Positions 9,196 through 36,385 are shown, counted from the stretch's first letter. The stretch: DNA of 64,000 nt from Patescibacteria group bacterium (GCA_041662665.1 JBAZSC010000001.1:449511-513510); one strand, 5' to 3'. Numbers and translations are program-made. The notes: a model not told the origin generated them from the sequence alone.

Positions 9196-11271
9196 ATGCA
9201 AAGTGAACTTCGCCAAAATAGAATCAAAAAATTAGAAGAAATCAAAGCTTTAAACATTGATCCATATCCAGCATATGCAGAAAGAACAAATACATGTCAG
9301 GAAATCATTAACGATTTTGACAAGTTTAAAGACCAAAAAAATATTATAGTTGGTCGTATTTTTTTATTTCGTCCATTTGGCAAAGCAACATTTGCCCAAA
9401 TTGGCGATGAGACAGGAAGAATCCAAGTTTATTTTAAAGAAGAAAATTTAAAAAAGAATTATGATTTAGTCAGAAAATTAGATATTGGCGATTTTATTCA
9501 AGCCACTGGCACATTATTTTTAACTAAAACAAAAGAAAAAACTGTCCAAGTCAGCAATGTAAAATTATTAACAAAATCAATTCTGCCTCTTCCGGAAAAA
9601 TTTCATGGCTTGAAAAATGAAGAAGAGCGCTATCGCAAAAGATATTTAGATTTAATTTCGAATAAAAAAACTTTTGATTTATTCAAAAAAAGAACTCAAT
9701 TCGTAAATTCAATTCGAAGCTTTATGCAAGAATCAGGTTTTATGGAAGTTGAAACTCCGACATTAGAGCATATTCCAGGCGGTGCAGACGCAACTCCATT
9801 CGTTACTCATCATAATGCATTAGACATCGATTTGTATTTACGCATTTCACTTGAGCTTCACTTAAAAAGATTAATTGTCGGCGGCTATGAAAAGATTTTT
9901 GAAATTGGCAAAGTTTTTCGTAATGAAGGAATTTCGCCTCAACATTTACAAGAATTCACAATGATGGAATATTATTGGGCTTATGCAACTTGGAAGGATC
10001 TAATTGGTTTTACTGAAAATTTTTACACCAAAATTATTAATGACACTTTTGGAACATTAAAAATAAAATACAAAGATCAAATTTTGGATTTTACAACTCC
10101 ATGGAAACAATATGATTACATAGAATTAATAAAAGACAAAACTGGTATTGATTTAAACAAAGCAAATACTTTTGAAAAACTGATCGAAGAAATTAGAGCC
10201 AAAAAAATAGAAGTTGAAAATGTAATTGGCTATGGCAGATTAGTTGATAATCTTTACAAAAAAACAGTTAGACCAAGTTTAATTCAGCCATGCTTTTTAA
10301 TTAATCAGCCTGTTGCAATTTCTCCATTAGCCAAAAAGAATGAAAATAATCAAAATACAACACAGCGTTTGCAAGTTTTAATTGCAGGCAGTGAATTAGG
10401 TAACGGTTTTTCAGAATTAAACGATCCATTAGATCAAAGACAAAGATTCGAGCAACAAGCAAAATTACGTAAAGAAGGGGACACAGAAGCGCAAATGATG
10501 GATGAAGATTTTGTTGAAGCTTTGGAATATGGCATGCCTCCAACTGCTGGTTTTGGTGTTGGCATTGATCGTTTATTAGCCATTCTTACAAATTCAGAAA
10601 ATATTAGAGATGTAATTTTCTTTCCACTAATGCGTCCCGAAAAAAATAATTTAGAAGCAAAGTCCAAGCCTTCAAAATATTCAGAAGTTGAAGAAGTGAA
10701 ATCAATGGATTCAGTTATTGACCGCAAAACAGCTTGGGAGTTATTAAAGCAAAATGTTAAAACAGAAAATTTAATTAAGCATTGTTTGGCATCAGAGGCA
10801 ATCATGAAAGCTTTAGCCAAAAAATTAAATAAACCAGAACAAGCTTGGGGAATTACTGGTCTTGTTCATGATTTAGATTTTGATTATACAAAAGAAAAGC
10901 CAGAAAAACATGCTTTGATGACAGCCGATATTTTAAATGAATATGAGGTACCAGAAGATATGATTGATGCAATTAAATCGCATAATTATGAAAATACCGG
11001 CATCACCAAAAAAACAGATTTAGATTTTGCTTTGTCGGCATCAGAACAGCTTAGCGGTTTAATTGTTTCTGCCACTCTAGTCTTGCCAGACAAAAAATTG
11101 CAATCATTAAAACCAGAATCAGTTCTGAAAAAAATGAAAGAAAAATCTTTTGCTAGAAATATCAGCAGAGAAGATATTCAAGATGTAGAAAAATTAGGAA
11201 TTAATTTAGATGAATTTGTTGCTTTAGCTATCAAGTCAATGCAAGAAATCAATAATGATTTAGGATTATAA
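9196..11271 (+). CDS. lysS: Lysyl-tRNA synthetase (class II) fused to a C-terminal HD-domain phosphohydrolase, roughly residues 515-691
   Basis: N-terminal OB-fold anticodon-binding domain. Class II motifs FRNEG, GGAD and GFGVGIDRL. Beyond ~aa 500 there is an extra ~180-aa region with HD signature (HCLASEAIM...GLVHDLD...KSHNYE). Confidence 0.85.
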   Translation: MQSELRQNRIKKLEEIKALNIDPYPAYAERTNTCQEIINDFDKFKDQKNIIVGRIFLFRPFGKATFAQIGDETGRIQVYFKEENLKKNYDLVRKLDIGDFIQATGTLFLTKTKEKTVQVSNVKLLTKSILPLPEKFHGLKNEEERYRKRYLDLISNKKTFDLFKKRTQFVNSIRSFMQESGFMEVETPTLEHIPGGADATPFVTHHNALDIDLYLRISLELHLKRLIVGGYEKIFEIGKVFRNEGISPQHLQEFTMMEYYWAYATWKDLIGFTENFYTKIINDTFGTLKIKYKDQILDFTTPWKQYDYIELIKDKTGIDLNKANTFEKLIEEIRAKKIEVENVIGYGRLVDNLYKKTVRPSLIQPCFLINQPVAISPLAKKNENNQNTTQRLQVLIAGSELGNGFSELNDPLDQRQRFEQQAKLRKEGDTEAQMMDEDFVEALEYGMPPTAGFGVGIDRLLAILTNSENIRDVIFFPLMRPEKNNLEAKSKPSKYSEVEEVKSMDSVIDRKTAWELLKQNVKTENLIKHCLASEAIMKALAKKLNKPEQAWGITGLVHDLDFDYTKEKPEKHALMTADILNEYEVPEDMIDAIKSHNYENTGITKKTDLDFALSASEQLSGLIVSATLVLPDKKLQSLKPESVLKKMKEKSFARNISREDIQDVEKLGINLDEFVALAIKSMQEINNDLGL

Positions 11272-11291
11272 TTTTTTAAAACCAAAACATA

Positions 11292-11942
11292 ATGCCAAAT
11301 CCAGAACAACCACAACCAATTCAAGAAAATTTAGCTGATGTTAAAGAGCCTCAACAAAATAATGTTGAAGGTCTTGAAGTTGCTCATGGGGAAGAATTAG
11401 AAAATGTTGTTGATGCAGCAAATGCCTTAGCAGGAAAAATTGAACGAGATGAAAAAGTTACAAAAGGAGAAGTTTATGATTTGCGAGAAGCTTTGGGACA
11501 AGTTAAATTTGATATTGGTGGAGAAATGATGACAATAGAACAGATTAAGCAAATTCCAGATCTGAAAACAAATCTTCCAATATTTCAAGAAATTCAAGCC
11601 GGGAATCTTAAGAGAGTGACAATGCTTTCGTTCTTACCTAAAAATATTGCAGAATCATTGAGCCACCATCATGGTGATCTTTATCTTATCGGTCTTTCTT
11701 CCTTATCTGATGAAGCTGCAGAATCATTGAGCCATCATCAAGGCGATCTTGATCTAAGAAATCTTTCTTCTTTATCTGACGCATCCGCAGAATCATTAAG
11801 TCATCATAACGGTGTTCTTAGTCTCTCTTTCCTTTCTTCTTTGTCTGATAGAGCTGCAGAATCATTGAGCCATCATCAGGGAAATTTAATTACTTCACCA
11901 AAAATTCAAGAACAAATCGATAAATTTAAAACCAAAAAATAA
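11292..11942 (+). CDS. Array paralog P1: conserved acidic N-domain, four 24-aa LRR-like repeats (LSSLSDxAAESLSHHxGxLxL), KFKTKK C-tail
   Basis: Starts MPNPEQPQPIQENLADVKEPQQ. First member of a 9-gene head-to-tail array. The 5' ~230 nt are ~90% identical to P4 and P8. Confidence 0.8.
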   Translation: MPNPEQPQPIQENLADVKEPQQNNVEGLEVAHGEELENVVDAANALAGKIERDEKVTKGEVYDLREALGQVKFDIGGEMMTIEQIKQIPDLKTNLPIFQEIQAGNLKRVTMLSFLPKNIAESLSHHHGDLYLIGLSSLSDEAAESLSHHQGDLDLRNLSSLSDASAESLSHHNGVLSLSFLSSLSDRAAESLSHHQGNLITSPKIQEQIDKFKTKK

Positions 11943-12548
11943 ATGCCAAATCCAGAACAACCAATGCAAGAAAAAATAGCTGATGTTAAAGAACCTCAAC
12001 AAAAAGTTGAAGGTCTTGAAATTGCGAAAACAGAAGAATTAAAAAAAGTAGTTGCTGCAGCAAATGTTTTAGCAGAAAAAATTGAAAGAAATGAAAATGT
12101 CACAGCCGGAGATGTTTTAGATTTAAAAGAGGCTTTGGGACAAGTTAAATTTGATTTCTACGGAGATCCATTAACATCAGAAGAAATAAAAAAGATTCCG
12201 AATTTACAAAAAAATATCGAAGTTTATAAAGGGATTAAGGCGAAAAAATTTTTGACTGGAGATTTATCTATACTTACTTATCTACCAGTAAAAATTGCAG
12301 AAACTATTAAGCGAGATTTTAAAAGCTCAATGCTATTTCTAAATGGCCTCACTTCTTTATCTGAAGAAGCTGCTAACAATCTCAAGGATTGGTTGAATGA
12401 ATCAAATTTCAGGACTCTTAGTATTACTGGAATTACTTCATTATCGCCTAAAGTAATTCAAATTCTTGCTCAATTTAAAAGAGAGCCTGCTGTTTCTGAA
12501 GAAATTGGCAATCAAATTGATAAATATAGACGACAATCTTATTTATGA
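11943..12548 (+). CDS. Array paralog P2 (divergent C-terminus ...QIDKYRRQSYL)
   Basis: Same conserved N-domain (MPNPEQPMQEKIADVKEPQQ...KIERNENVTAGDVLDLKEALGQVKFD). Start codon directly abuts the P1 stop. Its stop overlaps the ATG of a ribL 5' remnant. Confidence 0.75.
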   Translation: MPNPEQPMQEKIADVKEPQQKVEGLEIAKTEELKKVVAAANVLAEKIERNENVTAGDVLDLKEALGQVKFDFYGDPLTSEEIKKIPNLQKNIEVYKGIKAKKFLTGDLSILTYLPVKIAETIKRDFKSSMLFLNGLTSLSEEAANNLKDWLNESNFRTLSITGITSLSPKVIQILAQFKREPAVSEEIGNQIDKYRRQSYL

Positions 12549-12663
12549 AAAAAATACTCATCTTCGGCACATTTGATCTCTTGCATCCAGGCCATCTTGA
12601 TTTTTTAAAAATAAATATTTATAAAAGATGCTACAGAAATTTAAATTTAAAACCAAAAAATAA
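12545..12663 (+). pseudogene. Remnant of the 5' end of the RibL-like nucleotidyltransferase gene, fused to a paralog 3'-tail/junction sequence
   Basis: ATGAAAAAAATACTCATCTTCGGCACATTTGATCTCTTGCATCCAGGCCATCTTGATTTTTT matches the first ~60 nt of the intact gene at 18674 (MKK.LIFGTFDLLHPGHLDF). It then switches to ...gaaatttaaatttaaaaccaaaaaataaATG, which is the array junction. Confidence 0.7.
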
Positions 12664-13410
12664 ATGCCACATCCAGAACAACCAATGCAAGAAAATTTAG
12701 CCGACATTAAAGAGCCTCAACAACAAAAAGCTGAAGGTCTTGAAATTGCAAAAACTCCAGAATCAGAAAGAGTTATTGAATCTGCAAATAATTTAGCTGG
12801 AAAAATTGAACGAGATGAAAAAGTTACAGCTGGAGAAGTTTACGATTTAAGAGAAACTTTGGGACAAATGAAATTTGATTTTTATGGCAATAATCTGACA
12901 ATCAAAGAAATTAGGCAAGATCCAAATATTCAAAAAAATATTGGAATATGGCAAGAAATAGAAAGTGGAAATTGGAGAAATCGTGAAAAGCTTACAATGC
13001 TTCCACCAAAAATAGCCAGAGCTTTTAAAAATGTACCTGGAGATGATGTTTATCTAAATAATCTTTCTTCGTTGCAACCAGAATCAGTCAAAGCAATAAA
13101 AGATTGGGAAAAGGTTAGATTTTTACATCTTGATGGGATATCAAATATTTCAAAAGATGTCGCAACAGCTTTAGCGGCCTGGCATGGAGAAAATTTACAT
13201 TTACGCGGGCTTACAACAATATCACAAGAGGAAGCTAAAGCATTAAAAGATTGGTCAGGAACAAGGTTGTATCTTTCAGGACTCATTTCTATATCTGATG
13301 AAGCTGCAGAAGAACTTAAAAAATTTAGTGGTTTTATAGATTGTCCAGATGAAATTCAAAAACAGATTTATGGAATTAGTTTAGTTAGAAGAAGAATTCC
13401 AATGAGATAA
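12664..13410 (+). CDS. Array paralog P3 (MPHPEQ... variant, divergent C-terminus)
   Basis: Conserved N-domain with the TPESERVIESANNLAGKIERDEKVT variant, shared with P6/P7. LRR-like repeats follow. Confidence 0.75.
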   Translation: MPHPEQPMQENLADIKEPQQQKAEGLEIAKTPESERVIESANNLAGKIERDEKVTAGEVYDLRETLGQMKFDFYGNNLTIKEIRQDPNIQKNIGIWQEIESGNWRNREKLTMLPPKIARAFKNVPGDDVYLNNLSSLQPESVKAIKDWEKVRFLHLDGISNISKDVATALAAWHGENLHLRGLTTISQEEAKALKDWSGTRLYLSGLISISDEAAEELKKFSGFIDCPDEIQKQIYGISLVRRRIPMR

Positions 13411-13443
13411 AAAAGATTTATTAAAAATTTCTCAAATCTTAAT

Positions 13444-13561
13444 ATGAAAAAAGTTTTAATTTTCGGTACATTTGATCTCTTGCATCCAGGCCATCTTGAT
13501 TTTTTAAAAATAAATATTTATAAAAGATGCTACAGAAATTTAAATTTAAAACCAAAACATA
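13444..13561 (+). pseudogene. Second remnant of the RibL-like gene 5' end plus junction sequence
   Basis: Near-identical to 12545-12663 (atgaaaaaagttttaattttcggtacatttgatctcttgcatccaggccatcttgattttttaaaaataaatatttataaaagatgctacagaaatttaaatttaaaaccaaaacataATG). Confidence 0.7.
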
Positions 13562-14311
13562 ATGCCAAATCCAGAACAACCACAACCAATTCAAGAAAAT
13601 TTAGCTGACGTCAAAGAACCTCAACAAAATAATGTAGAAGGTCTTGAAGTTGCTCATGGGGAAGAATTAGAAAATGTTGTTGATGCAGCAAATGCTTTAG
13701 CAGAAAAAATTGAAAGAGATGAAAAGGTTACAGAAGGAGAAGTTTATGATTTGCGAGAAGCTTTGGGACAAATGGAATTTAATTATGGTGGAGATTCAAT
13801 GTCTATCACTGAAATTCAGAAAATTAAAGATTGGAAGAAAAATCTTGAAATCCTAAAAGAAATTAACGCCGGTAGCTTTAAGCATATTAGAGAGCTTACT
13901 TTTTTGACTGTCTCAGCTGCAGACGCTATAAGAAAAAAACGAGATGTAGATTTTTTGATAGGAGATTCAACCATACCTTTTGATAGTCTTGCTTCACTTT
14001 CTGATAGAGCCGCAGAATTGCTAAGTCATTGCAAATTGTCAAATTTACGCTTTGACAAGATAACCTCTTTATCTGATCAAGCTATTGAACATTTATCAAA
14101 TTTTTTTGGAGAACTTTATCTCAAAGGTCTTACTTCTTTGTCTGATAATGCTGCAGCTTCATTATCTAAATCTGAATGTTTAGTTCTTGCGCTTGATGGT
14201 TTAACTTCTTTGTCTGACAAAGCTGCAGAATCACTCGCTGAATATAAGGGTCAATTAGCAATAAAAAAAGAATTCAGACTGAAAATCAATCAATTTAAAA
14301 CCAAAAAATAA
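13562..14311 (+). CDS. Array paralog P4
   Basis: 5' end near-identical to P1 and P8. Has LRR-like repeats (LTSLSD.AAESL) and a ...NQFKTKK tail. Confidence 0.8.
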   Translation: MPNPEQPQPIQENLADVKEPQQNNVEGLEVAHGEELENVVDAANALAEKIERDEKVTEGEVYDLREALGQMEFNYGGDSMSITEIQKIKDWKKNLEILKEINAGSFKHIRELTFLTVSAADAIRKKRDVDFLIGDSTIPFDSLASLSDRAAELLSHCKLSNLRFDKITSLSDQAIEHLSNFFGELYLKGLTSLSDNAAASLSKSECLVLALDGLTSLSDKAAESLAEYKGQLAIKKEFRLKINQFKTKK

Positions 14312-14312
14312 T

Positions 14313-15173
14313 ATGCCAAATCCAGAACAATCGCAACCAATGCAAGAAAATGTAGCAGATGTTATAGAGCCCAAACAAAATACTGAGCCAAATATTGAAA
14401 TTGCCCAAACGCCAGAATTAGAAAACGTTGTTGACACAGCCAACGTTTTAGCAGAAAAAATTGAAGGAGATGAAAAAGTTACAGAAGGAGATGTTTATGA
14501 TTTGCGAGAAGCTCTGGGACAAATGAAATTTGATATTGGCGGAAAAATGATGACCGCAAATGAGCTCAGAGAAAATCCAGAATTACTAGCAAATTATAGG
14601 ATTTTGCAAGAAATGAAAAAAGGTAATTTTTCTAATATTCAAAATCTAACTAATCTTTCTTCTGAAACAGCAGAATTTCTTGTAAAACAAGGATTTAAGG
14701 TTGGAAATATATTAGACTTTAGAAAAATAAAAAAATTATCTTTAGATTCATTGAGAATTTTATCGAAATGGGAAGGAACTGCAATTGATTTTAGCGGATT
14801 AACTGATATGCCAAAAGAATTAGCTCGAATTTTGAAAGATTTTAAAGACGTTAGAAATTTAGACTTTAATGGTCTAACTGATTTGCCAAGCGAATCAGCA
14901 GCTATTTTAAAAGACTGGAATGGAGATTGTCTCTCTTTTGATGGACTTGCAACAATATCAAGAAATACAGCAAAAGAACTAAGCAAATGGAAAGGATTTT
15001 TTTTAGAGATAAGAGGAATCAAAACTCTTGATCAAGAAACAGCAAAAATTTTAGGAAAATGGGAGAGCACAAAACCCCGAGTACCATTATTTCCAAAAAT
15101 AGGTCATCGTACTTACTCAAGACGTTTCATCGAGGCTCCAATCAATATTTTAAATCAAATTCATGGAAGATAA
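14313..15173 (+). CDS. Array paralog P5 (divergent tail)
   Basis: Conserved N-domain. Repeats of type GLTDLPSESAAILKDWNGDxL. C-tail diverged from the KFKTKK consensus. Confidence 0.75.
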   Translation: MPNPEQSQPMQENVADVIEPKQNTEPNIEIAQTPELENVVDTANVLAEKIEGDEKVTEGDVYDLREALGQMKFDIGGKMMTANELRENPELLANYRILQEMKKGNFSNIQNLTNLSSETAEFLVKQGFKVGNILDFRKIKKLSLDSLRILSKWEGTAIDFSGLTDMPKELARILKDFKDVRNLDFNGLTDLPSESAAILKDWNGDCLSFDGLATISRNTAKELSKWKGFFLEIRGIKTLDQETAKILGKWESTKPRVPLFPKIGHRTYSRRFIEAPINILNQIHGR

Positions 15174-15178
15174 ATAAT

Positions 15179-15979
15179 ATGTCAAACCCAGAGCAACTAA
15201 TGCAAGAAAATTTAGCAGATGTCAAAGAACCTCAACAAAATGTTGAAGGTCTTGAAATTGCCAAAACACCTGAATCAGAAAAAGTTATTGAATCTGCAAA
15301 TAATTTAGCTGGAAAAATTGAACGAGATGAAAAGGTTACAGAAGGAGAAGTTGATGATTTGCGAGAAGCATTGGGACAAATGAAATTTGATATCAATGGA
15401 GAAATGATGACCATAGAACAGATTAAAGAAAATCCAGAAATGAAAATAAATTTCAAAATATTTCAAGAAATTCAATCTGGAGATCTACAAAGAAAATATA
15501 ATGTCGGACTTACGTTAGGGATTACATTTCTTCCTAAAAATATTGCTGAAGTGTTGAGCCATTATAATGGAACGCTTAACTTTCACAGACTTTCATTCAT
15601 ATCGGATTCAGCCGCAGAAGCATTGAGCCATCATAAAGGCACTCTTCATCTTAATAAACTTTCCTCTTTATCCGATAAAGCAGCGGAGTCATTGAGTCGT
15701 CATCAAGGATTTTTTCTCTATCTTATTGGGCTGTCTTCCTTATCTGATAAATCTATAGAATCATTGAGCCATTATCATGGTGGGCTTTTTCTCAGTGGTC
15801 TTTCTACTTTATCGGACAATGCCGCAGAATCATTGAGTCATCATCAAGAAAGTATTTATCTTGAAGGTCTTTCTTCTATATCTGATGCTGCCGCAGAATC
15901 ATTAAGCCATCACGACAAGTATTTAGGTGTCTCGCCAAAAATTCAAGAACAAATCAATAAATTTAAAACCAAAAAATAA
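15179..15979 (+). CDS. Array paralog P6 (MSNPEQ... start; first in-frame ATG of ORF 15059..15979)
   Basis: ATG at 15179 sits 5 nt after the P5 stop. Five LSSLSD.AAESLSHHxG repeats. ...INKFKTKK tail. Confidence 0.75.
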   Translation: MSNPEQLMQENLADVKEPQQNVEGLEIAKTPESEKVIESANNLAGKIERDEKVTEGEVDDLREALGQMKFDINGEMMTIEQIKENPEMKINFKIFQEIQSGDLQRKYNVGLTLGITFLPKNIAEVLSHYNGTLNFHRLSFISDSAAEALSHHKGTLHLNKLSSLSDKAAESLSRHQGFFLYLIGLSSLSDKSIESLSHYHGGLFLSGLSTLSDNAAESLSHHQESIYLEGLSSISDAAAESLSHHDKYLGVSPKIQEQINKFKTKK

Positions 15980-15980
15980 T

Positions 15981-16628
15981 ATGCCAAATCCAGAACAACC
16001 AATGAAAGAAAATATAGCCGACATTAAAGAGCCTCAACAACATAATGTTGAAGGTCTTGAAATCGCAAAAACACCTGAATCAGAAAGAGTAATTGAATCT
16101 GCAAACAATTTAGCAGGAAAAATTGAACGAGATGAAAAAGTTGCAGCTGGAGAAGTTTATGATTTGCGAGAAGCATTAGGACAAATGAAATTTGATGTTG
16201 GCGGAGAGATGATGACAAAAGAACAAATTAAGCAAATTCCTGATCTGCAAGAAAATCTAAAAATAATGAAAGAAATTAAAGCTAGAGATTGTCGTAGAGC
16301 AAAGCAACTTACATTTTTAACGCAAAAAACAATAGAAAATTTAGGCAAACTTGTTTATAATTTTCATTTAGACGGGATAACATTTTTGACTGATACTACC
16401 GCAGAATCATTAAGCCACCATCACGGAGATCTTTATCTGCTAAACCTCACTTCGTTATCTGACGCTGCTGCTGAATCATTGAGTCACCATCAAGCAGCAC
16501 TTTTTTTTAACAGACTATCTTCTTTATCTGATGCAGCTGCCGAGTCACTCAGTCGTCATTCAGGACTTCTTGGCCTCAATAACAGCAATCTCAAAAGACA
16601 GATAGATAAATTTAAAACCAAAAAATAA
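15981..16628 (+). CDS. Array paralog P7
   Basis: ATG at 15981 (residue 19 of track ORF 15927..16628), 1 nt after the P6 stop. ...IDKFKTKK tail. Confidence 0.75.
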   Translation: MPNPEQPMKENIADIKEPQQHNVEGLEIAKTPESERVIESANNLAGKIERDEKVAAGEVYDLREALGQMKFDVGGEMMTKEQIKQIPDLQENLKIMKEIKARDCRRAKQLTFLTQKTIENLGKLVYNFHLDGITFLTDTTAESLSHHHGDLYLLNLTSLSDAAAESLSHHQAALFFNRLSSLSDAAAESLSRHSGLLGLNNSNLKRQIDKFKTKK

Positions 16629-17474
16629 ATGCCAAATCCAGAACAACCACAACCAATTCAAGAAAATATAGCCGACGTTACAGAGCCTCAACAACAAAAT
16701 GTTGAAGGTCTTGAAGTTGCTCATGGGGAAGAATTAGAAAATGTTGTTGATGCAGCAAATGCTTTAGCAGAAAAAATTGAACGAGATGAAAAGGTTACAG
16801 AAGGAGAAGTTGATGATTTGCGAGAAGCTTTGGGACAAATGAAAATAGATGTTGGCGGAGAAATAATGACACTAGAAGAATTCAAAGGAACTTATCTTGA
16901 AATCTTAAAAGAAATCAAATCTGGAAATTTAACAAGAAGTAACGAGCTCCGCTTTTTGACTGATTCTGTTGCTACGACGTTGGAAAACAGTAGAGGTACA
17001 ATTTTTCTTAGTGGACTTACTTCATTGTCTGATTCAGCCGCTGAAATTTTAAGTCATCATCATTTTGATATTATTCTAAATGGCCTTACTTCTTTATCTG
17101 ATTCTGCTGCCGAGTCTTTTGGCCATCACCGTGGAAATCTTTTTCTTAGAGGTCTTACCTCTTTATCAGACAAAGCAGCTAAATCTCTGGGCCATCGCTA
17201 CGGAGATCTATACCTCGATAGTCTCAAAACTTTATCGGATTCTGCTGCTGAATCTTTGCGCCATCTTGATGGAAGCCTTTATCTTGATGGTCTTAGTACA
17301 TTATCGGATTCTGCTGCTGAATCGTTCAGCAATCAAAGCTGGCGAGTTTATTTTATGGGCTTAGTCTCATTGTCAGACCAGGCAATCGAATCATTAAGTC
17401 ATTTCAAAGGTAATTATCTTGGAGTTCCAGATAACATTAGTGATAAAATCAACAAATTTAAAACCAAAAAATAA
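16629..17474 (+). CDS. Array paralog P8 (six LRR-like repeats)
   Basis: ATG immediately follows the P7 TAA. 5' end near-identical to P1/P4. Confidence 0.8.
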   Translation: MPNPEQPQPIQENIADVTEPQQQNVEGLEVAHGEELENVVDAANALAEKIERDEKVTEGEVDDLREALGQMKIDVGGEIMTLEEFKGTYLEILKEIKSGNLTRSNELRFLTDSVATTLENSRGTIFLSGLTSLSDSAAEILSHHHFDIILNGLTSLSDSAAESFGHHRGNLFLRGLTSLSDKAAKSLGHRYGDLYLDSLKTLSDSAAESLRHLDGSLYLDGLSTLSDSAAESFSNQSWRVYFMGLVSLSDQAIESLSHFKGNYLGVPDNISDKINKFKTKK

Positions 17475-17475
17475 T

Positions 17476-18657
17476 ATGCCAAATCCAGAACAACCAATGC
17501 AAGAAAATTTAGCAGATGTCAAAGAACCTCAACAACAAAATGTTGAAGGTCTTGAAATTGCAAAAACTCCGGAATTAGAAAAAGTTGTTGACGCAGCCAA
17601 CGTTTTAGCAGGAAAAATTGAACGAGATGAAAAAGTTACAAAGGGAGAAGTTGATGATTTAAGGGAAGCTTTGGGGCAAATGAAATTAAATGTTGCAGGA
17701 ATCGAAATGACACTTGAAGAAGCAAAAACAAAAGGAAAATTCTACATTGAATTTCTGCAAGGAAAATTTGAACATCATTCAGAGTTAACAATTCTAACTC
17801 CAGAAATGGCACAAATAATCGCTGATAGTCACCGTTGGTTCAGCTTCCCAAAAGTTACAGAAATTTCAGACGAGACAGCGAACATTTTGGGTCGGCATGA
17901 CAGAGATTTAAATCTTTCGGGCTTAACCTCATTAACTGATAGCGCTGCTAGAGCACTTGCTAGACACAAGGGTAACATGAGTGCCTTAGGTTTATCTGGC
18001 TTAACCGAAATTTCTGATGAAGCTGCAAGATGGTGGGGAATGAACAGAAATAGCAGATTATTTTTTAACGGCGTAACAACTCTTTCTGGAGTTGCTGCAG
18101 CAAGATTATCAGCACATGAGTCTGATCTTTATTTGGAAAAATTAGTTGCTCTTCCCGAAGACGTTGCTGAAGGACTTGGTCGTTTTGGAGGCTATGAATA
18201 TAATACTCATATTTTAGATCTGTCTGGCGTTGAAGATCTTTCAGCTGAAAGCGCAAAAAATTTAGTTTCTAATCCCTATAAAAAAATTAATTTAGGACTA
18301 AAAAATATTTCTGATGAAGTTGCTGAACATCTAGGTAAATTAAAAGGTGATTTGCATCTTGAATCTCTGACCGAAATTTCATTAGAAGCTGCTGAGGGGC
18401 TATCTCATATTGAAGGTGCTTTAGTTTTATCAGGACTTACCTCAATATCGGATGATATAGCGAAAAAATTGGCAAAGGTTAAAGGCGCTCTAAATTTGCA
18501 GGGCTTAAAAGAGTTGACTCCAGATGTAGCATCAGCACTCGCAACACATACAGACGAAGATGTTTTGTGGTTGCCAAAACTTCCTGATACTCCAAAAGAA
18601 GTTGAAGAAATTCTTGCTGACAAAACAAAAAAAAGATTAGTTATGTGGTGGAAGTAG
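17476..18657 (+). CDS. Array paralog P9. The longest member, 393 aa, with ~10 regular 24-aa LRR-like repeats and no KFKTKK tail.
   Basis: ATG at 17476 (residue 20 of track ORF 17419..18657). Repeat consensus LxLxGLTxISDxAAxxLxxHxGxL. Confidence 0.8.
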   Translation: MPNPEQPMQENLADVKEPQQQNVEGLEIAKTPELEKVVDAANVLAGKIERDEKVTKGEVDDLREALGQMKLNVAGIEMTLEEAKTKGKFYIEFLQGKFEHHSELTILTPEMAQIIADSHRWFSFPKVTEISDETANILGRHDRDLNLSGLTSLTDSAARALARHKGNMSALGLSGLTEISDEAARWWGMNRNSRLFFNGVTTLSGVAAARLSAHESDLYLEKLVALPEDVAEGLGRFGGYEYNTHILDLSGVEDLSAESAKNLVSNPYKKINLGLKNISDEVAEHLGKLKGDLHLESLTEISLEAAEGLSHIEGALVLSGLTSISDDIAKKLAKVKGALNLQGLKELTPDVASALATHTDEDVLWLPKLPDTPKEVEEILADKTKKRLVMWWK

Positions 18658-18673
18658 CTTTAACAATAAATAT

Positions 18674-19081
18674 ATGAAAAAAGTTTTAATCTTCGGCACA
18701 TTTGATCTTTTGCATCCAGGCCATCTCGATTTTTTCAAGCAAGCAAAAAAACTAGGGGACTATCTTGAAGTTATTGTTGCTCGTGATCAAACAGTCAGCG
18801 CAATCAAAAAACATCGGACATTATTCAATGAAAAAGACAGATTAGCCAATGTCAAAAATCAAAAGATTGTTGATGAAGCAAAATTGGGAAATTTAGATGA
18901 TCCATACAAAATAGTAAAACAAGAAAAGCCAGATATTATTGCCTTAGGCTATGATCAAAAATCATATACAGAAGAATTAGAAGACAAAATCAAGGAATTC
19001 GGTTTTAAAACAAAAATCGTCAGATTAAAATCATTTAAACCAGAAAAATATAAATCATCGAAATTAAAATTAAATTTGTAA
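18674..19081 (+). CDS. Cytidylyltransferase-family nucleotidyltransferase, RibL-like FMN adenylyltransferase
   Basis: IFGTFDLLHPGHLDF (HxGH motif), VIVARDQTV and KPDIIALGYDQ align closely with archaeal RibL (AGTFDILHPGH...VIVARDETV...KPDIIVLGPDQ). 135 aa. Confidence 0.6.
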   Translation: MKKVLIFGTFDLLHPGHLDFFKQAKKLGDYLEVIVARDQTVSAIKKHRTLFNEKDRLANVKNQKIVDEAKLGNLDDPYKIVKQEKPDIIALGYDQKSYTEELEDKIKEFGFKTKIVRLKSFKPEKYKSSKLKLNL

Positions 19082-19441: not shown

Positions 19442-19544
19442 TATTCGTAATTCGCAACATTTGCATTATTTGTACTTTGTCCGCCGAAGTCCCGCAGGAC
19501 GAAGGCGGAGATTTGTATTATATTTATTTAATAAAACCAAACAA

Positions 19545-20786
19545 ATGAAAACAAAAATCCTCGTTTTTGCTTTCGCATTGTTGCTCTTGCTACCGATCGG
19601 CTTTGTTTCAGCTTATGACATCAGGAGTACAGAAGGAACAGCAACAATCTCAAGCACAGAAACAATTCAAGACGATCTCATGATCGCCGGACAATCAGTC
19701 CAAATTGATGGCGTTGTCTCTGGCGATGTTTATGCAGTTGGACAAACAGTCACAATAAGTTCAGACGCAAAAGTTTTAGGAAATTTATTTACTGCTGCTC
19801 AAATAGTAAATATTGATGGAACTGTTGAAGGCGATGTTTTTGCTGCTGGCGCAAATGTAAATATTACTGGCTCAGTAAAAAATGGCATTATGGCTTTTGC
19901 TGGAATGATTTCTGTTGCTCCAAAAGCAACTCTAGATAGCAATAATGCAACATTTTTCGGTGGCACAATTGATATTAGTAAAAATGCCAATTTCTCAAAA
20001 GATTTAATTGTTAATGGCGGTGTAACTAATTTCAAAGGTACAGTTGATAATAATTTAACAATTAATGCTGGTACAGTTGATGTTTCAGGACAAGTCAAAA
20101 AAGATGCAACAATTACTGCTTCGGACAAATTAGTTTTTAATTCCGGTGCTAAAGTTGATGGCAATTTAAATTATACAGCTCCAGAAAAAGCAGAATTTAA
20201 GAGCGGATCAAGTGTCTCTGGTGAAACAAAATTTACTCAATTTACAAAAGAACAACAAAAAAATGTTGGCAAGAAAAATCATTCAAACTGGTTTGCAATG
20301 TCAGCATTCAAAATCGCTTCAGGTTTTGTCAGCATGATTTGTTTAATTGTTGTTTCAATTATTACGGCTGCAGTTGCAAAAAAATACAGCTTAAATTTTG
20401 TTGAACAATTAAAAACAAAGACTTGGGCATCATTAGGTTGGGGCCTATTAGTTGTTTTTGTTGCACCGATTGCTATGCTAATCTTGTTTGTAACAATTAT
20501 TGGAATTCCATTGGCTTTGCTAGTTTTACCAATTTACATTGTCTTAATGTATTTTGCAAAAGTATTTGCTTCAATCTGTACAGGCTACTTCATTATCAAA
20601 TCAATCAACAAAAAAGAACCAAATTTGATCTTATCAGCAGTTTTAGGTGTTATTGTTTTGAGCATAATAATGATGATTCCATTTATAGGATTTTTAGCAA
20701 AATTAGCTGTAATTTCTCTAGGTATTGGTGGTATTATTCTAGCTTGCAAAGCATATCATAAGAATTCTTCAGCAAAAAAAGCCTAA
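19545..20786 (+). CDS. Secreted/membrane protein: signal peptide, bactofilin-like beta-helical repeats, C-terminal multi-TM domain
   Basis: First ATG at 19545 (MKTKILVFAFALLLLLPIGFVSA). Repetitive V.G.V.G.V segments. Four or five C-terminal TM helices. Confidence 0.55.
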   Translation: MKTKILVFAFALLLLLPIGFVSAYDIRSTEGTATISSTETIQDDLMIAGQSVQIDGVVSGDVYAVGQTVTISSDAKVLGNLFTAAQIVNIDGTVEGDVFAAGANVNITGSVKNGIMAFAGMISVAPKATLDSNNATFFGGTIDISKNANFSKDLIVNGGVTNFKGTVDNNLTINAGTVDVSGQVKKDATITASDKLVFNSGAKVDGNLNYTAPEKAEFKSGSSVSGETKFTQFTKEQQKNVGKKNHSNWFAMSAFKIASGFVSMICLIVVSIITAAVAKKYSLNFVEQLKTKTWASLGWGLLVVFVAPIAMLILFVTIIGIPLALLVLPIYIVLMYFAKVFASICTGYFIIKSINKKEPNLILSAVLGVIVLSIIMMIPFIGFLAKLAVISLGIGGIILACKAYHKNSSAKKA

Positions 20787-28002: not shown

Positions 28003-30858
28003 TTATATTTCGCGTCTTTTCTCCAGATTTCTAAAACTCGCTACATTTTGTTCAAAGAATAAATCAACAACTCCTGTTGGTCCATTTCTATGTTTTTTAA
28101 TATGAATTTCTGCAATATGTTTTCGATCTGTATCTTTTTTATAAACTTCTTCGCGATAAATAAACATAACAACATCAGCATCTTGTTCAATACTACCACT
28201 TTCTCTTAAATCTGACAATTGTGGTATCTGCGGAGTTCTATTTTCTACAGCACGAGACAACTGCGATAATGCCAGTACTGGCACATTGAGTTCGCGAGCA
28301 ATACCTTTTAGCGCTCTAGATATTTCTGAAACCTCTTGAACTCTGCTTTCTGTATTTCTTCCTTCCATCAACTGCAAATAATCAACAACCAAAAAACCTA
28401 ATCCATGTTCAGCATGCAATCTTCTTGCTTTTGTTCTGATTTCCATAATGTTTGAAGAAGGGGAGTCATCAATGAATAATGGCGCTTCTGATAAGACGCC
28501 CATTGCATGTCCAATTCTTGGAAAATCATCATCTTCTTCGCGATCAGAAAGTTTTCCAGTTCTCATTCTCCACAAATCAACATTCGCTTCAGAACATAAT
28601 ATTCTATCAACCAATTGTTCTTTTGACATTTCAAGACTGAATATGCCAACTGGAATCTTTTGCTTGGCAATATTTTTAGCAAAATCAAGAGCAAGAGATG
28701 TATTATGTACCAAAAAATCATTAGCGATAAAATTGTGCGTTGAATTTATTGATAAATCATAAACTTGTTTTTTGCCAATATATTTTATACTTTTTATTTT
28801 ATCCCAAACTATGTCGCTTTCAGCTAATTCTAAAAGCTTTTTTGATTTTAAAACTGTTGCTAATTTTTTAATAGTTTCTCTTCTTGGATTTCGTCTAAAA
28901 GCATGAATATTATGAGTTAACGGCAAATTTAATTTTTTATAAATTTCTTGCCATGTTTTTTTGCCTTTCGCTTTTTTGACTAAATGCCAAACCTCAATTG
29001 GCAGAGTATCATAAGTCCAGCCAGATGTTTTTTTATTTACGAATTTTTCTAATTTTGCAAGCTGTTTTTCTTTGCCAAAAATTCCAATTTCTTTTGCAAA
29101 TCTGCTAATATTTTCTTTATTCCTTATTTCTATTTCAAAAGCAGTTCTTACTTCATTATTATATTTAATTTTTTTAATTCTTAATTTGCTTATTATGCCA
29201 AATCTCAATAATAAATGTTGGATTTGTTTTATTAATTTTTCCGATATTGATGAATAGGATAATCCATAATTATTTTTGCCTAAATAAGCAGAGCCATCAC
29301 AAGAGAATAGGCGATTCAAAAATAATGCAACAAATTCTTTTTTTAAGCTAAATATAATCTCTGGTACGAACTTATTGCCAGCTGATTTACCCATTAGATC
29401 TAATTGTTTTAACCACTTAGTAACAGAATTACTATCTTCCAATTCATTACGCAACTTTTTAATTTGGTTTTGAGTTTTAAGCGGCAATTTTAAATAATCT
29501 AATATACTTTTTAAAGTTTCACATGTTGGCAACCAATGACCATTGATAATAGCTGAAAAACCCGCGTGGCTTAAACCAATACTTTTTTCAATATCCATTT
29601 GTTTTTGATTTGTTTTTATAACAAATGTTTTTAGCAATTCGCCAAACTTTTTTATTTTTTGCTTATCTTTAATTTTCGTACTAGAAACTCTAAAACTTGG
29701 AGTTCTTTTTCCGTTAAAATCAGATAACATAAATTTCACATTAGGAAATTTAGTAACTGAATTTTGAAAATCAGAAATTATCTTTTTATTATTGTTTGTA
29801 AAAATAGGGCAGTGTGTTGTTAAACCACCATCAGCAATAAAATAAGCAAGGCATTTAACTTTATGAGATTCAAGACTTTTTTTACCAAATATCGGAATGA
29901 CTCTAGGACGACCAATCCGCTGACCAGCTTTTAATTTTAATAATGGCTTCCATCCGTCAATTGTCAAAAAAGGATGCGTCAAAGTTGTCTTGATTTTATA
30001 TCCAAGCGCTGTTTCAATTTCATAAACTGGTTTTATATGATCATCCAAATAATTGCTAATTTCAGTTTTCTGTATTTTTAACTCATTATTTAGAGTCAAA
30101 ATATTTCTTAATTTTTCTTTGTATGCCTTTTCAATTGTTAACATACTGCCTGTTTCAGGATCAATTATTTCCGTATCTGCTGTAACGCATTTTCCCATAC
30201 TAGGTCTAGCAGCTAAAATAATCAAATCAGATCGCTGAAATCCAGCCAATACATTATCAAGATCTGGAAAGCCAGTTGGAATTCCACGCAATTTACTGCC
30301 ATCTCGATGCAATTCATCAATTCTCTCAAAAGCATCAGTTAAAACATCTTTAATAACAATAAAATTTTGTTTTAAATATTTTTGAGAAATGCCAAATAAT
30401 TTTTGTTCAGCTTCATCCAATAATTTTTCTATATCTTTTCCTTCTTGATAACCTAATCTTGAAATATCGCCAGCTGCAGTAATCAATTTTCTTAAGGTTG
30501 ATTTTCTCTGAACTATTTTAGCATAATGAATAATATTTCCAGCTGTTGGCACAATGTTTGCAAGAGAAACAAGATAGCTTCTTCCGCCAATTAAATCCAA
30601 ATGTCCTTTGTCAGTTAAAGAGTTCGCCAAACTTACCACATCAATTGGTTCTCTTTTTTCGTACAACTCAAGCATTGAAGAAAAAATCATGCTATTCTTT
30701 TCTTCATAAAAATCTTCAGACCGCAAAAAATCAGAGACTTTGATAATCGCATCTTTATCAATCAAAAGAGAGCCTAAAACAGATTTTTCAGCTTCTTTGT
30801 TTCTTGGTGGCAATTTTTCAACAACGTCGTTTTGGTTTTCCATGATATAACAATACAT
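28003..30858 (-). CDS. dnaB: Replicative DNA helicase DnaB interrupted by an in-frame intein (951-aa precursor, ~455-aa mature helicase)
   Basis: N-domain and linker, then Walker A split as ARPSMGK|C...HN|TSLALDF. C-terminal RecA-like domain carries helicase motifs H2-H4. Confidence 0.9.
28702..30189 (-). mobile_element. DnaB intein, ~496 aa, inserted in the P-loop. Contains a LAGLIDADG homing-endonuclease domain.
   Basis: Starts at Cys1 (CVTADTEI, block A). TLTHPF block B. Two LAGLIDADG motifs ([16 protein letters not shown]). Ends ...FLVHN before Thr+1. The flanks rejoin as GKT. Coordinates ±3 nt. Confidence 0.8.
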
Positions 30859-34981: not shown

Positions 34982-36385
34982 TTAAAGACTTCCAGAATTA
35001 CGGACATCAGCTCTTTTCATCGGCCATTCTGCTTTTCCAGATTTATCAAAAAAATCAGACAAATTCCAGATATAAACGGAACTATCAGAAAGGCTAGAAA
35101 TAACTTCCAAAACCTTGTTATTATCAACATCAGATAAAGATGGATATGTTAAAAAATTTCCACCTTTTGATTCAGTAGCTAATGGCCATGAATCTCTAAT
35201 TTCTTCGCCATTATTTTTCCAAGCATAAATTCGATCATCAGAAGTACCTAAGACTTCAATATTTTTATCATCATTAATATCCGCCAAATTAATATATTTT
35301 ATTGTCTGTGCAGCAGTTTTTGGCCAGCCCTTAATTTCGGATCCTAATTCGCCTAAGACATGTACTCCAGATTTATTAGCAAAAGAAATATTGGCAATTT
35401 CATTATTATCAACATCACCAAGAGCTAAATCAGAAACTCCATCTTCAAAATTTATTGTCAGTAATTGCTCTCCAGTTTTTGAATAAACTAAAATGTCTTT
35501 TTCCTTTGTACTAACAATAATATTCATGTCAGTCTTGTTAGTAACATTTCCAATTACAACTTCCATATTAGCAGAAGCAGAATCAATTGTTTTAGGATAT
35601 CCAGATAATGTTTGTCCATTATTTTTTAAAACAGAAAGCTCATTTTTTCCTGAAGACAAAGAAGTGAAAATAATTTCAGATTTTGTGTCAGAATCTAAAT
35701 TGGCAGTTGCTAAATCAGAACTTATTTTTTCACTTGTTTCTTTTGGCCAGCCAGACACAATTTCGCCAGCATTAGATATGACATAAATAATTCGATCGCC
35801 AAATGCAGCAATTTCCATTTTATTATCAGAAGTAATATCAGAAATAACAGGAGTTCTTTCTGATGCCAAATTATCTAATGTTTTTGGAAAACCATTTTTA
35901 ATATCAGCATTGCCGCTAAACGCGTAAACAGCTTTGTTTGTTGAAATCACAACATCAAGCTTGCCATCCAAATCCAAATCTCCAATTGCTGGAACTGATG
36001 TACCTAAATATTCATCAATTTTTATTGGCCAATTTGGAACTTCGGATCCATCATCATTTAAAGCATAAACTAAATGCTCATTTGTCCCAAAAATAATTTC
36101 TGGCTTTTTGTCAGCATCAATATCACCAACAGTTGTTCTTGATGGAAGACCGCTGATACTTCTTGGCCAGCCAGCTTTGTAAACCAAAACAGGAAATAAA
36201 TCTTTAATGTTTGGTCCGCTAGCTTTTTTCTTTACAATTGATTGTGGAATGATCTGTTCATTTTTGTAGGCGCCTTTATATACAGTATATCCCATTGCTG
36301 CCATCATCGCAGCACCAGCAAATAGAACGCCAATCAAAGTGCCAACACGAACTTTGGTTTTTGTTTGTGTTAGTGTTTCGGGCAT
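34982..36385 (-). CDS. Membrane-anchored FG-GAP/VCBS-repeat beta-propeller protein
   Basis: N-terminal TM helix. Repeated GDxDxDGxxDxV motifs (GDLDLDGKLDVV, GDVDNN, ADINDDKNIEV). Confidence 0.6.
   Translation of the reverse strand: MPETLTQTKTKVRVGTLIGVLFAGAAMMAAMGYTVYKGAYKNEQIIPQSIVKKKASGPNIKDLFPVLVYKAGWPRSISGLPSRTTVGDIDADKKPEIIFGTNEHLVYALNDDGSEVPNWPIKIDEYLGTSVPAIGDLDLDGKLDVVISTNKAVYAFSGNADIKNGFPKTLDNLASERTPVISDITSDNKMEIAAFGDRIIYVISNAGEIVSGWPKETSEKISSDLATANLDSDTKSEIIFTSLSSGKNELSVLKNNGQTLSGYPKTIDSASANMEVVIGNVTNKTDMNIIVSTKEKDILVYSKTGEQLLTINFEDGVSDLALGDVDNNEIANISFANKSGVHVLGELGSEIKGWPKTAAQTIKYINLADINDDKNIEVLGTSDDRIYAWKNNGEEIRDSWPLATESKGGNFLTYPSLSDVDNNKVLEVISSLSDSSVYIWNLSDFFDKSGKAEWPMKRADVRNSGSL

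Follow-up and report, generated by a model that had tools for sequence, protein, structure and literature searches.

A recently expanded tandem array of soluble leucine-rich-repeat-like proteins in a Patescibacteria group bacterium and its possible relation to a MoxR ATPase/vWA machine

Within a 64,000-nucleotide stretch of the genome of a Patescibacteria group bacterium (the window, from whose first letter all positions are counted), nine intact open reading frames lie head to tail on the plus strand between lysS and a RibL-like gene. They encode a family of soluble repeat proteins with a common N-terminal module, and the number of paralogs, their orientation and both flanks are as an earlier sequence-only reading had described them. 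The gene starts given for P1 to P9 are mechanical ORF starts trimmed to the common MPNPEQ start.

9196..11271, + strand: lysS, left boundary of the array
11292..11942, + strand: P1, 216 aa; N-domain, 4 repeats of 23 aa and KFKTKK tail; AF2 mean pLDDT 81.6
11943..12548, + strand: P2, 201 aa; N-domain and ~3 degenerate repeats; divergent tail
12541..12609, + strand: duplication fossil 1, in the P2-P3 spacer; ~65 nt copied from the start of the RibL-like gene; an array-type leader comes next
12664..13410, + strand: P3, 248 aa; N-domain (P3/P6/P7 sub-variant) and ~4-5 repeats
13443..13508, + strand: duplication fossil 2, in the P3-P4 spacer; repeats the start of the RibL-like gene, with 94% identity to the start of that gene in the relative
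13562..14311, + strand: P4, 249 aa; N-domain (P1/P4/P8 sub-variant), ~5 repeats and QFKTKK tail
14313..15173, + strand: P5, 286 aa; N-domain and ~6 divergent repeats; divergent tail
15179..15979, + strand: P6, 266 aa; N-domain, 6 repeats and KFKTKK tail; mechanical ORF from 15059
15981..16628, + strand: P7, 215 aa; N-domain, 4 repeats and KFKTKK tail; mechanical ORF from 15927
16629..17474, + strand: P8, 281 aa; N-domain, 7 repeats and KFKTKK tail
17476..18657, + strand: P9, 393 aa; N-domain and ~11 repeats; mechanical ORF from 17419
18674..19081, + strand: RibL-like cytidylyltransferase gene (CTP_transf_like), 135 aa; right boundary of the array

The intergenic gaps from P1 to P9 measure 0, 115, 151, 1, 5, 1, 0 and 1 nt. 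The 20-nt gap between lysS and P1 carries an array-type leader (TTTAAAACCAAAACATA), unlike the spacer that follows lysS in a relative, which is 113 nt long and contains a hairpin-forming inverted repeat. A contig from an independent ENA assembly is 100% identical to the window over 10550-13733, so that P1-P3, at least, are not an assembly artefact.

The proteins are built alike: a disordered acidic tip of ~28 aa is followed by a family-specific N-domain, a solenoid of 23-residue repeats and, usually, a short basic capping helix at the C-terminus (..QI.KFKTKK). The N-domain of ~110 aa is predicted to consist of two long helices, a beta-hairpin and short helices reaching to about residue 110, in a model built from 51 sequences with pLDDT 82-96 over residues 30-110. 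Across the nine paralogs 32 of its 108 columns are invariant and identity to P1 is 61-80% at the amino acid level; E29 and D53 are near-invariant acidic residues. It had not been recognised as any described family, and searches agreed, returning no Pfam, NCBIfam or PADLOC match. We found no Death-like fold match to the N-domain, and no F-box Pfam hit even at E<=1. Neither an export signal nor a membrane segment is present in the nine proteins, whose KD(19) maxima are <= 1.14; the N-terminal 30 residues carry a net charge of -2 to -6 and whole-protein pI is 4.7-6.1, in keeping with the earlier description of acidic, soluble proteins without a Sec signal.

The repeats required more revision. TRF gave a period of 69 nt, or 23 aa, and across the family spacings of 23 aa (120) far outnumber those of 24 aa (32), so the 24-residue unit proposed previously was not upheld; the number of copies per protein in the array, put at 2 to ~10, was corrected to ~3-11. 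In the consensus, GxLxLxG-L-t-s-L-S-D-x-a-A-e-x-L-s-k-H, the spacing of L19, L21, L4, S5 and D6 agrees with LxLxx(C)xxL(T)D, but the pattern departs from the canonical segment in having Leu/Val/Ile at the ladder position and in lacking the first Leu of LxxL. AF2 predicts one strand and one helix per 23-aa unit (pLDDT 90-98), that is, the tandem strand/turn/helix solenoid of 20-30-residue units characteristic of the LRR superfamily, and the top Foldseek match was the Leptospira LRR protein LIC12234, with probability 0.97 but an E of 0.06. Curated models were of little help: at E<=1 Pfam gave only LRR_8 (E 0.022), on a non-repeat stretch of P4, and neither LRR_1, LRR_4 and LRR_6 at that threshold nor the NCBIfam LRR models matched the array proteins. 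The earlier assignment to F-box-type, cysteine-containing LRRs thus stood for the LRR-like solenoid, as predicted by AF2, and fell for the cysteine, since Leu occupies the ladder position and each protein has 0-2 Cys.

On the predicted structure, the solenoid is composed of 23-residue CC/GALA-like leucine-rich repeats. With the GALA-LRR and CC-LRR proteins (Ralstonia RipG4, Legionella LegL1, FBXL17) it shares the strand-turn-helix solenoid, a spacing that fits the core LxLxx(C/N)xxL(T/S)D and variable beta-face positions. It does not have the 24-27-residue period or the Cys/Asn ladder of that class, to whose GALA/CC subclass its structural neighbours nevertheless belong, and it further differs in a frequent His at repeat position 15, the lack of a Pfam LRR match, of an F-box and of a secretion context. 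Sequence entropy peaks, at 3.3-3.7 bits, at the x positions of GxLxLxG, which form the beta-strand face. Since variability is concentrated on the LRR binding face, the LRRs would appear to bind diverse ligands.

Over the first ~230 nt, DNA identity is 92.3-93.2% among P1, P4 and P8, 86.2-88.6% among P3, P6 and P7 and 78-84% for other pairs, and it falls to 39-73% just past codon ~78. A single tree cannot accommodate 54.5% of the informative site pairs among the N-domains, and a PHI-type statistic of 0.431 (0.582 +/- 0.018 when permuted) was reached or undercut in 0 of 5000 permutations. Both the sub-variants and the mosaicism that had been read as gene conversion were therefore borne out. Median dS between paralogs is 0.39 in the N-domain and ~0.94 in the adjacent linker, and N-domain dN/dS of ~0.4 indicates moderate constraint. 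Gene conversion holds the 5' leader and N-domain alike while the LRR parts diverge. P9 and its counterpart in the relative (P0005; 86% identical overall) are 66.7% identical in the N-domain (dN/dS 0.6) and 90.6% identical in the remainder (dN/dS 0.14), the N-domain diverging faster than the LRR part.

That relative, ~82% identical, has the P9 ortholog as the sole family copy at the lysS/RibL-like locus, where nine are found here, and the expectation that the array varies across related genomes was thereby confirmed. The gene order shared with the relative runs to the end of lysS and resumes at P9, which identifies window positions 11273-17469 as extra in this genome. Both spacer fossils derive from the first ~65 nt of the RibL-like gene. 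P9 is the ancestral, orthologous copy, and from it the array grew in place by tandem segmental duplication, giving nine genes that form a recent "satellite" expansion within a single family of soluble proteins.

Beyond the array the family is real but rare, with 106 cluster representatives (E<=1e-3) among 1.84 billion proteins. The N-domain is N-terminal in every one of them and is fused to 23-aa LSD-type repeats, to LTSAEGLVLP-type repeats or to non-repeat C-termini (P0107, P0137, P0138, L009 6183-6980 and L007 3912-end). The organism labels we obtained for family-bearing genomes were only Patescibacteria and Saccharibacteria. In this MAG family copies are dispersed at at least four loci, with ~16 family genes in a genome of roughly 1 Mb (a rough size estimate).

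Five loci from at least four organisms have family genes beside, and usually between, genes for a CbbQ/NorQ-like AAA_5 ATPase and an HExxH-vWA protein; the association refers to these five loci, most of the 106 representatives being on short contigs.

L006: AAA_5, then 7 family genes, then HExxH-vWA
L009: AAA_5, then 7 family genes, then HExxH-vWA
L012/L013: 1 family gene, then AAA_5, then 2 family genes, then vWA
L004: 5 family genes, then AAA_5, then vWA
L007: AAA_5, then a family gene

The ATPases match AAA_5 in Pfam (E 6.6e-17 and 1.7e-15), have NorQ and CbbQ as their closest solved relatives (PDB, E ~2e-10) and are 49-75% identical across loci; the vWA partners are 50-74% identical, and the LRR proteins only ~25-35%. 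The vWA assignment (VWA_2, E 3.4e-4) lies below Pfam's curated cutoff. HExxH, the MIDAS motif DxSxS (in three partner proteins) and Walker A are conserved, and both partners are predicted to be soluble. No AAA_5 or vWA gene occurs inside the window, where the array sits between housekeeping genes. We infer the cassette of this genome from synteny only (WC663_01650 adjoins thrS); WC663_01655 is 45% identical to the L004 member that adjoins the ATPase.

MoxR-vWA "ternary" systems with a variable third component have been described, concentrated in multicellular bacteria, with CPR genomes left out of the enrichment statistics (PMC7159879; PMC8195603). Like those conflict systems (Kaur, Burroughs, Iyer & Aravind 2020; Kaur et al. 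2021), the loci L004, L006, L007, L009 and L012/L013 encode a MoxR-class AAA+ ATPase with N- and C-terminal extensions and, next to it, a MIDAS-bearing vWA partner; the operon also contains a third component that diversifies rapidly, and paralogs diversify within a genome. They differ in that the third component is 1-7 separate LRR proteins: the genes between or beside the pair belong to the N-domain/LRR family and match no Pfam, NCBIfam or PADLOC model, in place of the VMAP, iSTAND, FtsH, beta-propeller, iSTAND2 or TERNS3 of the described systems. Moreover, no effector domain is seen C-terminal to the vWA, an HExxH module being N-terminal instead, the genomes are very small and there are satellite arrays at a distance from the core cassette. 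The ATPase is nearest NorQ/CbbQ and, as in CbbQ-CbbO and NorQ-NorD, is paired with a vWA/MIDAS protein, but at 626-637 aa it exceeds twice their length of ~270, its partner carries HExxH and the linked genes encode LRR proteins rather than Rubisco or NO reductase. As with effector-associated domains (EADs) and Death-like adaptor domains, a short, mostly helical N-terminal module is common to proteins with different C-terminal modules, encoded both next to the MoxR-vWA pair and elsewhere in the genome. What is lacking is the copy on a core component by which EADs are defined: neither the N-domain HMM nor hhalign (probability 0.2% against both) revealed an N-domain in the ATPase or vWA ORFs, which excludes homotypic, EAD-style docking.

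In CbbQ/NorQ-class MoxR systems the ATPase works with a vWA/MIDAS adaptor, which binds the client at an acidic residue. The ATPase and HExxH-vWA genes are the only conserved genomic partnership we found, which points to a mechanism other than a secreted effector and suggests that the family proteins, rather than being secreted effectors of the classical kind, are exchangeable subunits through which a chaperone-like machine binds its targets. More specifically, we give an even chance to a model in which the satellite array grown from P9 supplies, inside the cell, a range of recognition or adaptor subunits to a single ATPase/vWA remodelling machine. The N-domain would be the constant handle through which the pair engages every family member, possibly through binding of E29 and D53 to the MIDAS site, on the pattern of CbbO-Rubisco or Rea1-Rsa4, and the LRR an exchangeable, variable target-binding module; phage, host-derived or self proteins are candidate targets. 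Such docking would be heterotypic and is conjecture on our part.

A weaker rival, which we consider doubtful, holds that these are host-interaction effectors or adhesins of an episymbiont, secreted, surface-displayed or injected, whose LRRs bind host molecules and whose N-domain or basic C-terminal tail signals for non-classical export or translocation, for instance through a Patescibacterial type IV secretion system. Some T4SS substrates bear positively charged C-terminal signals, which the tail resembles, but the tail motif is kept in only 36 of 97 family representatives. Fast copy-number change and diversification fit host-interaction families; against this, none of the nine proteins has a Sec, Tat or lipoprotein signal, none of the 97 representatives has one or a hydrophobic segment, no secretion genes were noted in the 5-10 kb flanks of the family loci examined and the conserved neighbours are the predicted-soluble ATPase and vWA proteins. 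We know of no translocation-signal model for Patescibacteria. A VirD4/TraD-like coupling protein is encoded at 38181-40700, 20 kb from the array, and T4SS substrates in Patescibacteria are unknown (PMC12102498); yet T4CP homologues are near-ubiquitous in the group (5,713 in 2,918 genomes; PMC12102498), so this co-occurrence is uninformative. Of the variable-effector family proposed earlier, the constant module joined to an expandable repeat module in a variable array is supported, and the reading as a eukaryote-like secreted or host-interaction effector gains no direct support, neither an export signal nor a link to secretion genes having been found.

It is unlikely that the LRR proteins are purely clients, structural or regulatory proteins whose folding, metal loading, proteolytic maturation by the HExxH domain or assembly into a larger structure needs the MoxR/vWA chaperone and whose N-domain is a pro-region or recognition tag to be removed or remodelled. 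Known CbbQ/NorQ-type systems do act on defined clients, the vWA partner has kept its HExxH motif, and zincin peptidases process small, rapidly diverging proteins in MoxR-vWA contexts (Kaur et al.). A near-invariant Gly (G77, often as GG) after the helical part of the N-domain could be read in the same way, but G76-G77 lie in the turn of a confidently predicted beta-hairpin and their conservation is probably structural. Maturing ~16 divergent paralogs without other function also seems wasteful in a ~1 Mb genome, and the variable LRR binding face argues for diverse ligands.

That the genes are neutral or decaying duplicates, by-products of unequal recombination with little function and N-domains alike only through recent duplication, is very improbable. 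The repeats of P2, P3 and P5 are degenerate and their tails lost, gene fragments lie in the spacers and constraint on the paralogs' N-domains is only moderate, but all nine ORFs are intact, dN/dS of the P9 LRR against its ortholog is low, the same architecture recurs in organisms of 31-44% GC and throughout the 106 clusters, and distant organisms keep the 0-1 nt gene spacing in their arrays. An F-box-like E3-ligase mimic, with the N-domain as a divergent F-box recruiting a Skp1-like partner as in GALA/RipG and FBXL, is largely refuted and scarcely credible, both from the Pfam result above and because the known hosts of cultivated Patescibacteria are, to our knowledge, bacteria or archaea, which lack SCF ligases.

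The adaptor-subunit reading can be extended, tentatively and with rather little confidence, to a split NLR-like recognition system of ultra-small bacteria, in which a diversifying LRR repertoire (~16 genes) docks via a co-evolving N-domain on one AAA+/vWA-metalloprotease machine and triggers a response. Ligand binding would then lead to anti-phage immunity or to recognition or manipulation of host-cell proteins, and the receptors would be renewed by tandem duplication and gene conversion. If true, MoxR-vWA ternary systems would gain a new class, and Patescibacteria their first described candidate for an innate recognition repertoire. Plant NLR/R-gene clusters and lamprey VLR cassettes likewise combine a constant module with variable LRRs in tandem arrays shaped by unequal crossing-over and gene conversion, but the likeness is one of analogy only, the present proteins being prokaryotic and their polypeptides including neither an NB-ARC nor a STAND domain, and the immune role is a proposal. 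In those systems, too, close relatives differ in copy number; at the thrS locus the counts run opposite to those at the array, with at least 2 copies here (WC663_01650 and WC663_01655) against 5 in the relative.

The nine tandem paralogs, P1 to P9, belong to an atypical leucine-rich repeat (LRR) family whose arrays are linked to a gene pair encoding a MoxR-type ATPase (AAA_5) and its HExxH-vWA partner; the literature we searched contained no description of LRR arrays linked to a MoxR-vWA pair. As the sequence-only reading had it, the paralogs form a same-strand array between lysS and a RibL-like gene, and we found nine intact ORFs there, head to tail, after three mechanical ORF starts were moved to the MPNPEQ start common to all paralogs.

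9196-11271, + strand, lysS, left boundary
11292-11942, + strand, P1
11943-12548, + strand, P2
12664-13410, + strand, P3
13562-14311, + strand, P4
14313-15173, + strand, P5
15179-15979, + strand, P6
15981-16628, + strand, P7
16629-17474, + strand, P8
17476-18657, + strand, P9
18674-19081, + strand, RibL-like cytidylyltransferase-family gene, 135 aa, right boundary

Six of the eight array junctions measure 0-5 nt, and spacers of 115 nt and 151 nt follow P2 and P3, respectively. The proteins appear in NCBI under locus tags WC663_02370-02420. Window positions 10550-13733 are 100% identical to a contig of an independent ENA assembly, which ends within the P4 N-domain, as expected where short reads meet a repeat. 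Promoter-like sites were no more frequent in the array than chance predicts, and what scored there as minus-strand 'terminators' was a single palindromic coding stretch repeated across several N-domains. The EPQQxNVEG codons form this short palindrome (CCTCAAC...GTTGAAGG) at ~11350-11375 and at the equivalent site in P2, P3, P6, P7 and P9; it was scored as a terminator in five paralogs and probably just reflects what is encoded there.

Aligned over their first ~108 residues, the N-domains of P1-P9 share 32 invariant columns. No Pfam, NCBIfam or PADLOC model matched the array proteins, in agreement with the earlier view that the N-domain lies outside described families. The proteins are acidic (pI 4.7-6.1), very much so at the N-terminus, and by hydrophobicity none of the nine contains a stretch that could pass for a signal peptide or membrane helix, again as anticipated. 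The repeat, taken at first to be 24 residues long, has a period of 69 nt or 23 aa by Tandem Repeats Finder, and in the family at large 120 repeat spacings measure 23 residues and 32 measure 24. In an AlphaFold2 model of P1 (mean pLDDT 81.6), residues 1-28 are disordered and are followed by long helices at 34-51 and 58-67, a beta-hairpin at 72-81 and short helices; the C-terminal part is a strand-plus-helix solenoid at pLDDT 90-98, closed by a terminal helix. The repeat units share the consensus L-t-s-L-S-D-x-a-A-e-x-L-s-k-H-x-G-x-L-x-L-x-G, and entropy peaks (3.3-3.7 bits) at the three x positions of GxLxLxG. These map to the exposed beta-face, which is the ligand-binding surface of LRRs; the family is modular, with a variable binding face. 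As modelled, the repeats are CC/F-box-type LRRs at the level of fold, so that this part of the original assignment stands, whereas the subclass is atypical: the units differ from CC/F-box-type LRRs in their 23-aa length, in having Leu at the ladder position and in their frequent His at position 15, and they matched no curated LRR model. This 23-aa LRR subclass escapes those Pfam LRR models that we searched. A histidine ladder runs through the repeats: of 130 family units, 53% have His at position 15, and an 'SHH.G' motif occurs in nearly every repeat of P1, P6, P7 and P8. This His may stand in for the Asn/Cys ladder or bind metal.

A leader, AAAACCAAAA(A/C)ATAA, lies upstream of every array start but that of P6, and the starts of P1, P3 and P4 have it though no array gene abuts them. 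We considered whether the KFKTKK-stop might be nothing more than 5' leader DNA belonging to the gene that follows, and rejected this; distant family members keep the ..QI.KFKK tail at the protein level, indicating that it serves as both protein cap and array junction.

Word-index protein searches found 3, 44 (mostly repeat-only proteins) and 4 matches, and the family emerged only when 1.84 billion representative proteins were searched exhaustively by profile, which gave 106 N-domain clusters at E<=1e-3. The domain always occupies residues 1 to ~105 of proteins of 89-407 aa; one weak match, away from the N-terminus of an 1847-aa protein, is probably unrelated. Most members have 23-aa repeats and the ..QI.KFKK tail, some have another repeat (LTSAEGLVLPxxIGGxLxL) and a few a non-repeat C-terminal domain; a hydrophobic segment was found in 0 of 97 family representatives. 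The 23-aa repeat without the N-domain is widespread in other bacteria, often with a signal peptide. No relatives of the N-domain or of the ATPase were detected on viral contigs, so a phage-borne origin is unsupported. The window's own MAG contains further members (WC663_01465, 01475, 01650, 01655, 02105 and 02110) and an N-helix-only protein (WC663_04835). Patescibacteria are host-dependent and their genomes are very small; this one invests ~16 genes, at four or more loci, in one family not previously described. To our knowledge few lineage-specific genes of Patescibacteria have a proposed function, and we know of little that explains their host recognition and phage resistance.

The array's variability across relatives, which the earlier reading had required, is evident in GCA_964574655.1, the closest genome available (~82% nucleotide identity in the flanks). 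Its collinearity with the window runs until lysS ends and picks up again at P9, with a single gene (P0005, 86% identical to P9) where there are nine here, so that 11273-17469, comprising P1-P8, is extra in the window. The array has expanded recently and in situ. The two long spacers, 3' of P2 and P3, each carry ~65 nt copied from the 5' part of the RibL-like gene (its start codon and ~20 codons, at 12541-12609 and 13443-13508), followed by an identical 40-nt junction and then the array leader; these copies are fossils of duplications that spanned the former right-hand boundary of the array. Locus tags 02380 and 02390, absent among the array proteins, may be these fragments. The leader upstream of P1, directly after lysS, derives from a KFKTKK-stop tail; its place in the relative is taken by a 113-nt spacer containing an inverted repeat that can form a hairpin. 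At the thrS locus copy number is reversed, with five genes in the relative (locus L004) and at least two known here. Turnover is therefore fast: 9 vs 1 at the array, 2 vs 5 at thrS.

The mosaicism attributed to gene conversion was borne out. Over the first ~230 nt, P1, P4 and P8 are 92-93% identical (~90-95% had been estimated), P3, P6 and P7 86-89% and the remaining pairs 78-84%; identity falls to 39-73% right past codon ~78. Median dS among paralogs is 0.39 in the N-domain vs ~0.94 in the adjoining linker, 54.5% of informative site pairs conflict with a single tree, and a PHI-type statistic lay below all 5000 permutations. Between the orthologs P9 and P0005 the trend is the opposite: the N-domain is 66.7% identical (dN/dS ~0.6) and the remainder 90.6% (dN/dS 0.14). 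These three results (dS, site incompatibility with the PHI-type statistic, and the ortholog pattern) indicate that the N-domain evolves in concert through gene conversion, being homogenised inside a genome and drifting between genomes.

Family genes adjoin a MoxR-class AAA_5 ATPase gene (626-637 aa) at five loci in at least four organisms (31-44% GC), usually lying between it and a gene for a ~660-aa protein with an HExxH motif and a vWA domain whose DxSxS MIDAS motif is intact.

L006, ATPase, 7 family genes, vWA
L009, ATPase, 7 family genes (both repeat types and one non-repeat member), vWA
L012/L013, 1 family gene, ATPase, 2 family genes, vWA
L004, 5 family genes, ATPase, vWA
L007, ATPase, then a family gene, at a contig end

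Across loci the ATPases (49-75% identity) and vWA partners (50-74%) are far better conserved than the LRR proteins, and all three are predicted to be soluble. The nearest solved relatives of the ATPase are NorQ and CbbQ; in PADLOC and NCBIfam the ATPase and vWA proteins had matches only far under the curated cutoffs, and a metagenome scan with the ATPase as query, using weak search patterns, gave two loci. The window itself has no copy of the ATPase or vWA gene. By synteny the cassette should follow WC663_01655 in this genome: that protein is 45% identical to, and collinear with, the L004 member adjoining the ATPase, and WC663_01650 abuts thrS like family genes in L004 and L012. The short-read contigs end after WC663_01650. 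In L004 an in-frame TGA (15901-15903) replaces the conserved Gly of HExGH in the vWA-partner gene (HER*HAE vs HERGHAE in L009 and L012). A nonsense mutation, a sequencing error and local recoding are all possible causes, and the rest of that genome decodes normally under code 11. An RHS/YD-repeat core with a C-terminal extension (polymorphic-toxin type) lies just upstream of the cassette ATPase gene, on the opposite strand, at L007 739-1508 (-) and L008 3-748 (-).

This conserved placement between the two genes points to specific partners that can be tested. The vWA/MoxR pair would recognise the N-domain as a constant handle, in which the near-invariant residues E29 and D53 are candidates for binding the MIDAS site, as CbbO-Rubisco and Rea1-Rsa4 suggest by analogy, and the LRRs would be interchangeable target-binding modules. 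With the window's satellite array, one machine would then serve a wider repertoire. If many paralogs co-evolve with one shared partner, this would account for an N-domain that is kept uniform inside each genome but differs from one genome to the next. The overall arrangement resembles the MoxR-vWA 'ternary' conflict systems, in which a variable third component was proposed as invader sensor (Kaur et al., PMC7159879, PMC8195603). It differs in that the third component, LRR arrays, is new and that we saw no effector domain on the C-terminal side of vWA. The N-domain, unlike an effector-associated domain (EAD), has no copy on the ATPase or vWA protein and so fails the defining EAD test. CPR genomes lay outside the statistics of the earlier MoxR-vWA surveys (PMC7159879, PMC8195603), and the 'ternary system' concept may extend to them and to this third component.

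Possibly the LRR proteins are clients only, with the N-domain a pro-region processed by the HExxH module; the conserved Gly, however, is located in the predicted hairpin turn. A double-glycine leader was provisionally rejected, its GG falling in that predicted turn; nor did we note a C39 or ABC exporter beside any family locus. While the structural and evolutionary inferences of the sequence-only reading are supported, its view of the proteins as eukaryote-like, secreted or translocated effectors is not: the LRR subclass, typical of effectors, and the basic C-terminal tail lend it some plausibility, but we found no positive evidence. The window does encode a VirD4/TraD-like type IV coupling protein (38181-40700, +, 839 aa; TrwB_AAD_bind E 1.2e-11), for which every NCBIfam match is far under its curated cutoff, and no other T4SS genes were found among the window ORFs scanned. 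Its proximity to the array is uninformative, since such genes are near-universal in the phylum (PMC12102498). Neutral decay of the array is unlikely, with the P9 LRR under strong purifying selection, as is F-box mimicry, and an F-box identity of the N-domain was rejected.

We noted several other features of the window. A 951-aa DnaB replicative helicase (28003-30858, -) contains an intein (Intein_splicing E 2.9e-27) with a LAGLIDADG homing endonuclease (LAGLIDADG_3 E 8.1e-22). FG-GAP repeat proteins are encoded at 34982-36385 (-) and, near family arrays of the related genomes, at L004 3221-4627 and L012 1620-3023, the latter two fused with a staphylococcal-nuclease domain. An 842-aa protein (53713-56241, +) joins two ATP-grasp modules, an ATP-grasp_4/LAL_C2 module and a C-terminal D-Ala-D-Ala-ligase module, an unusual fusion. 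Finally, a 441-aa protein (19461-20786, +) combines a bactofilin domain at its N-terminus with a C-terminal region whose many hydrophobic stretches resemble, by eye, several membrane helices; at its position the relative has different, shorter genes (199 and 131 aa).
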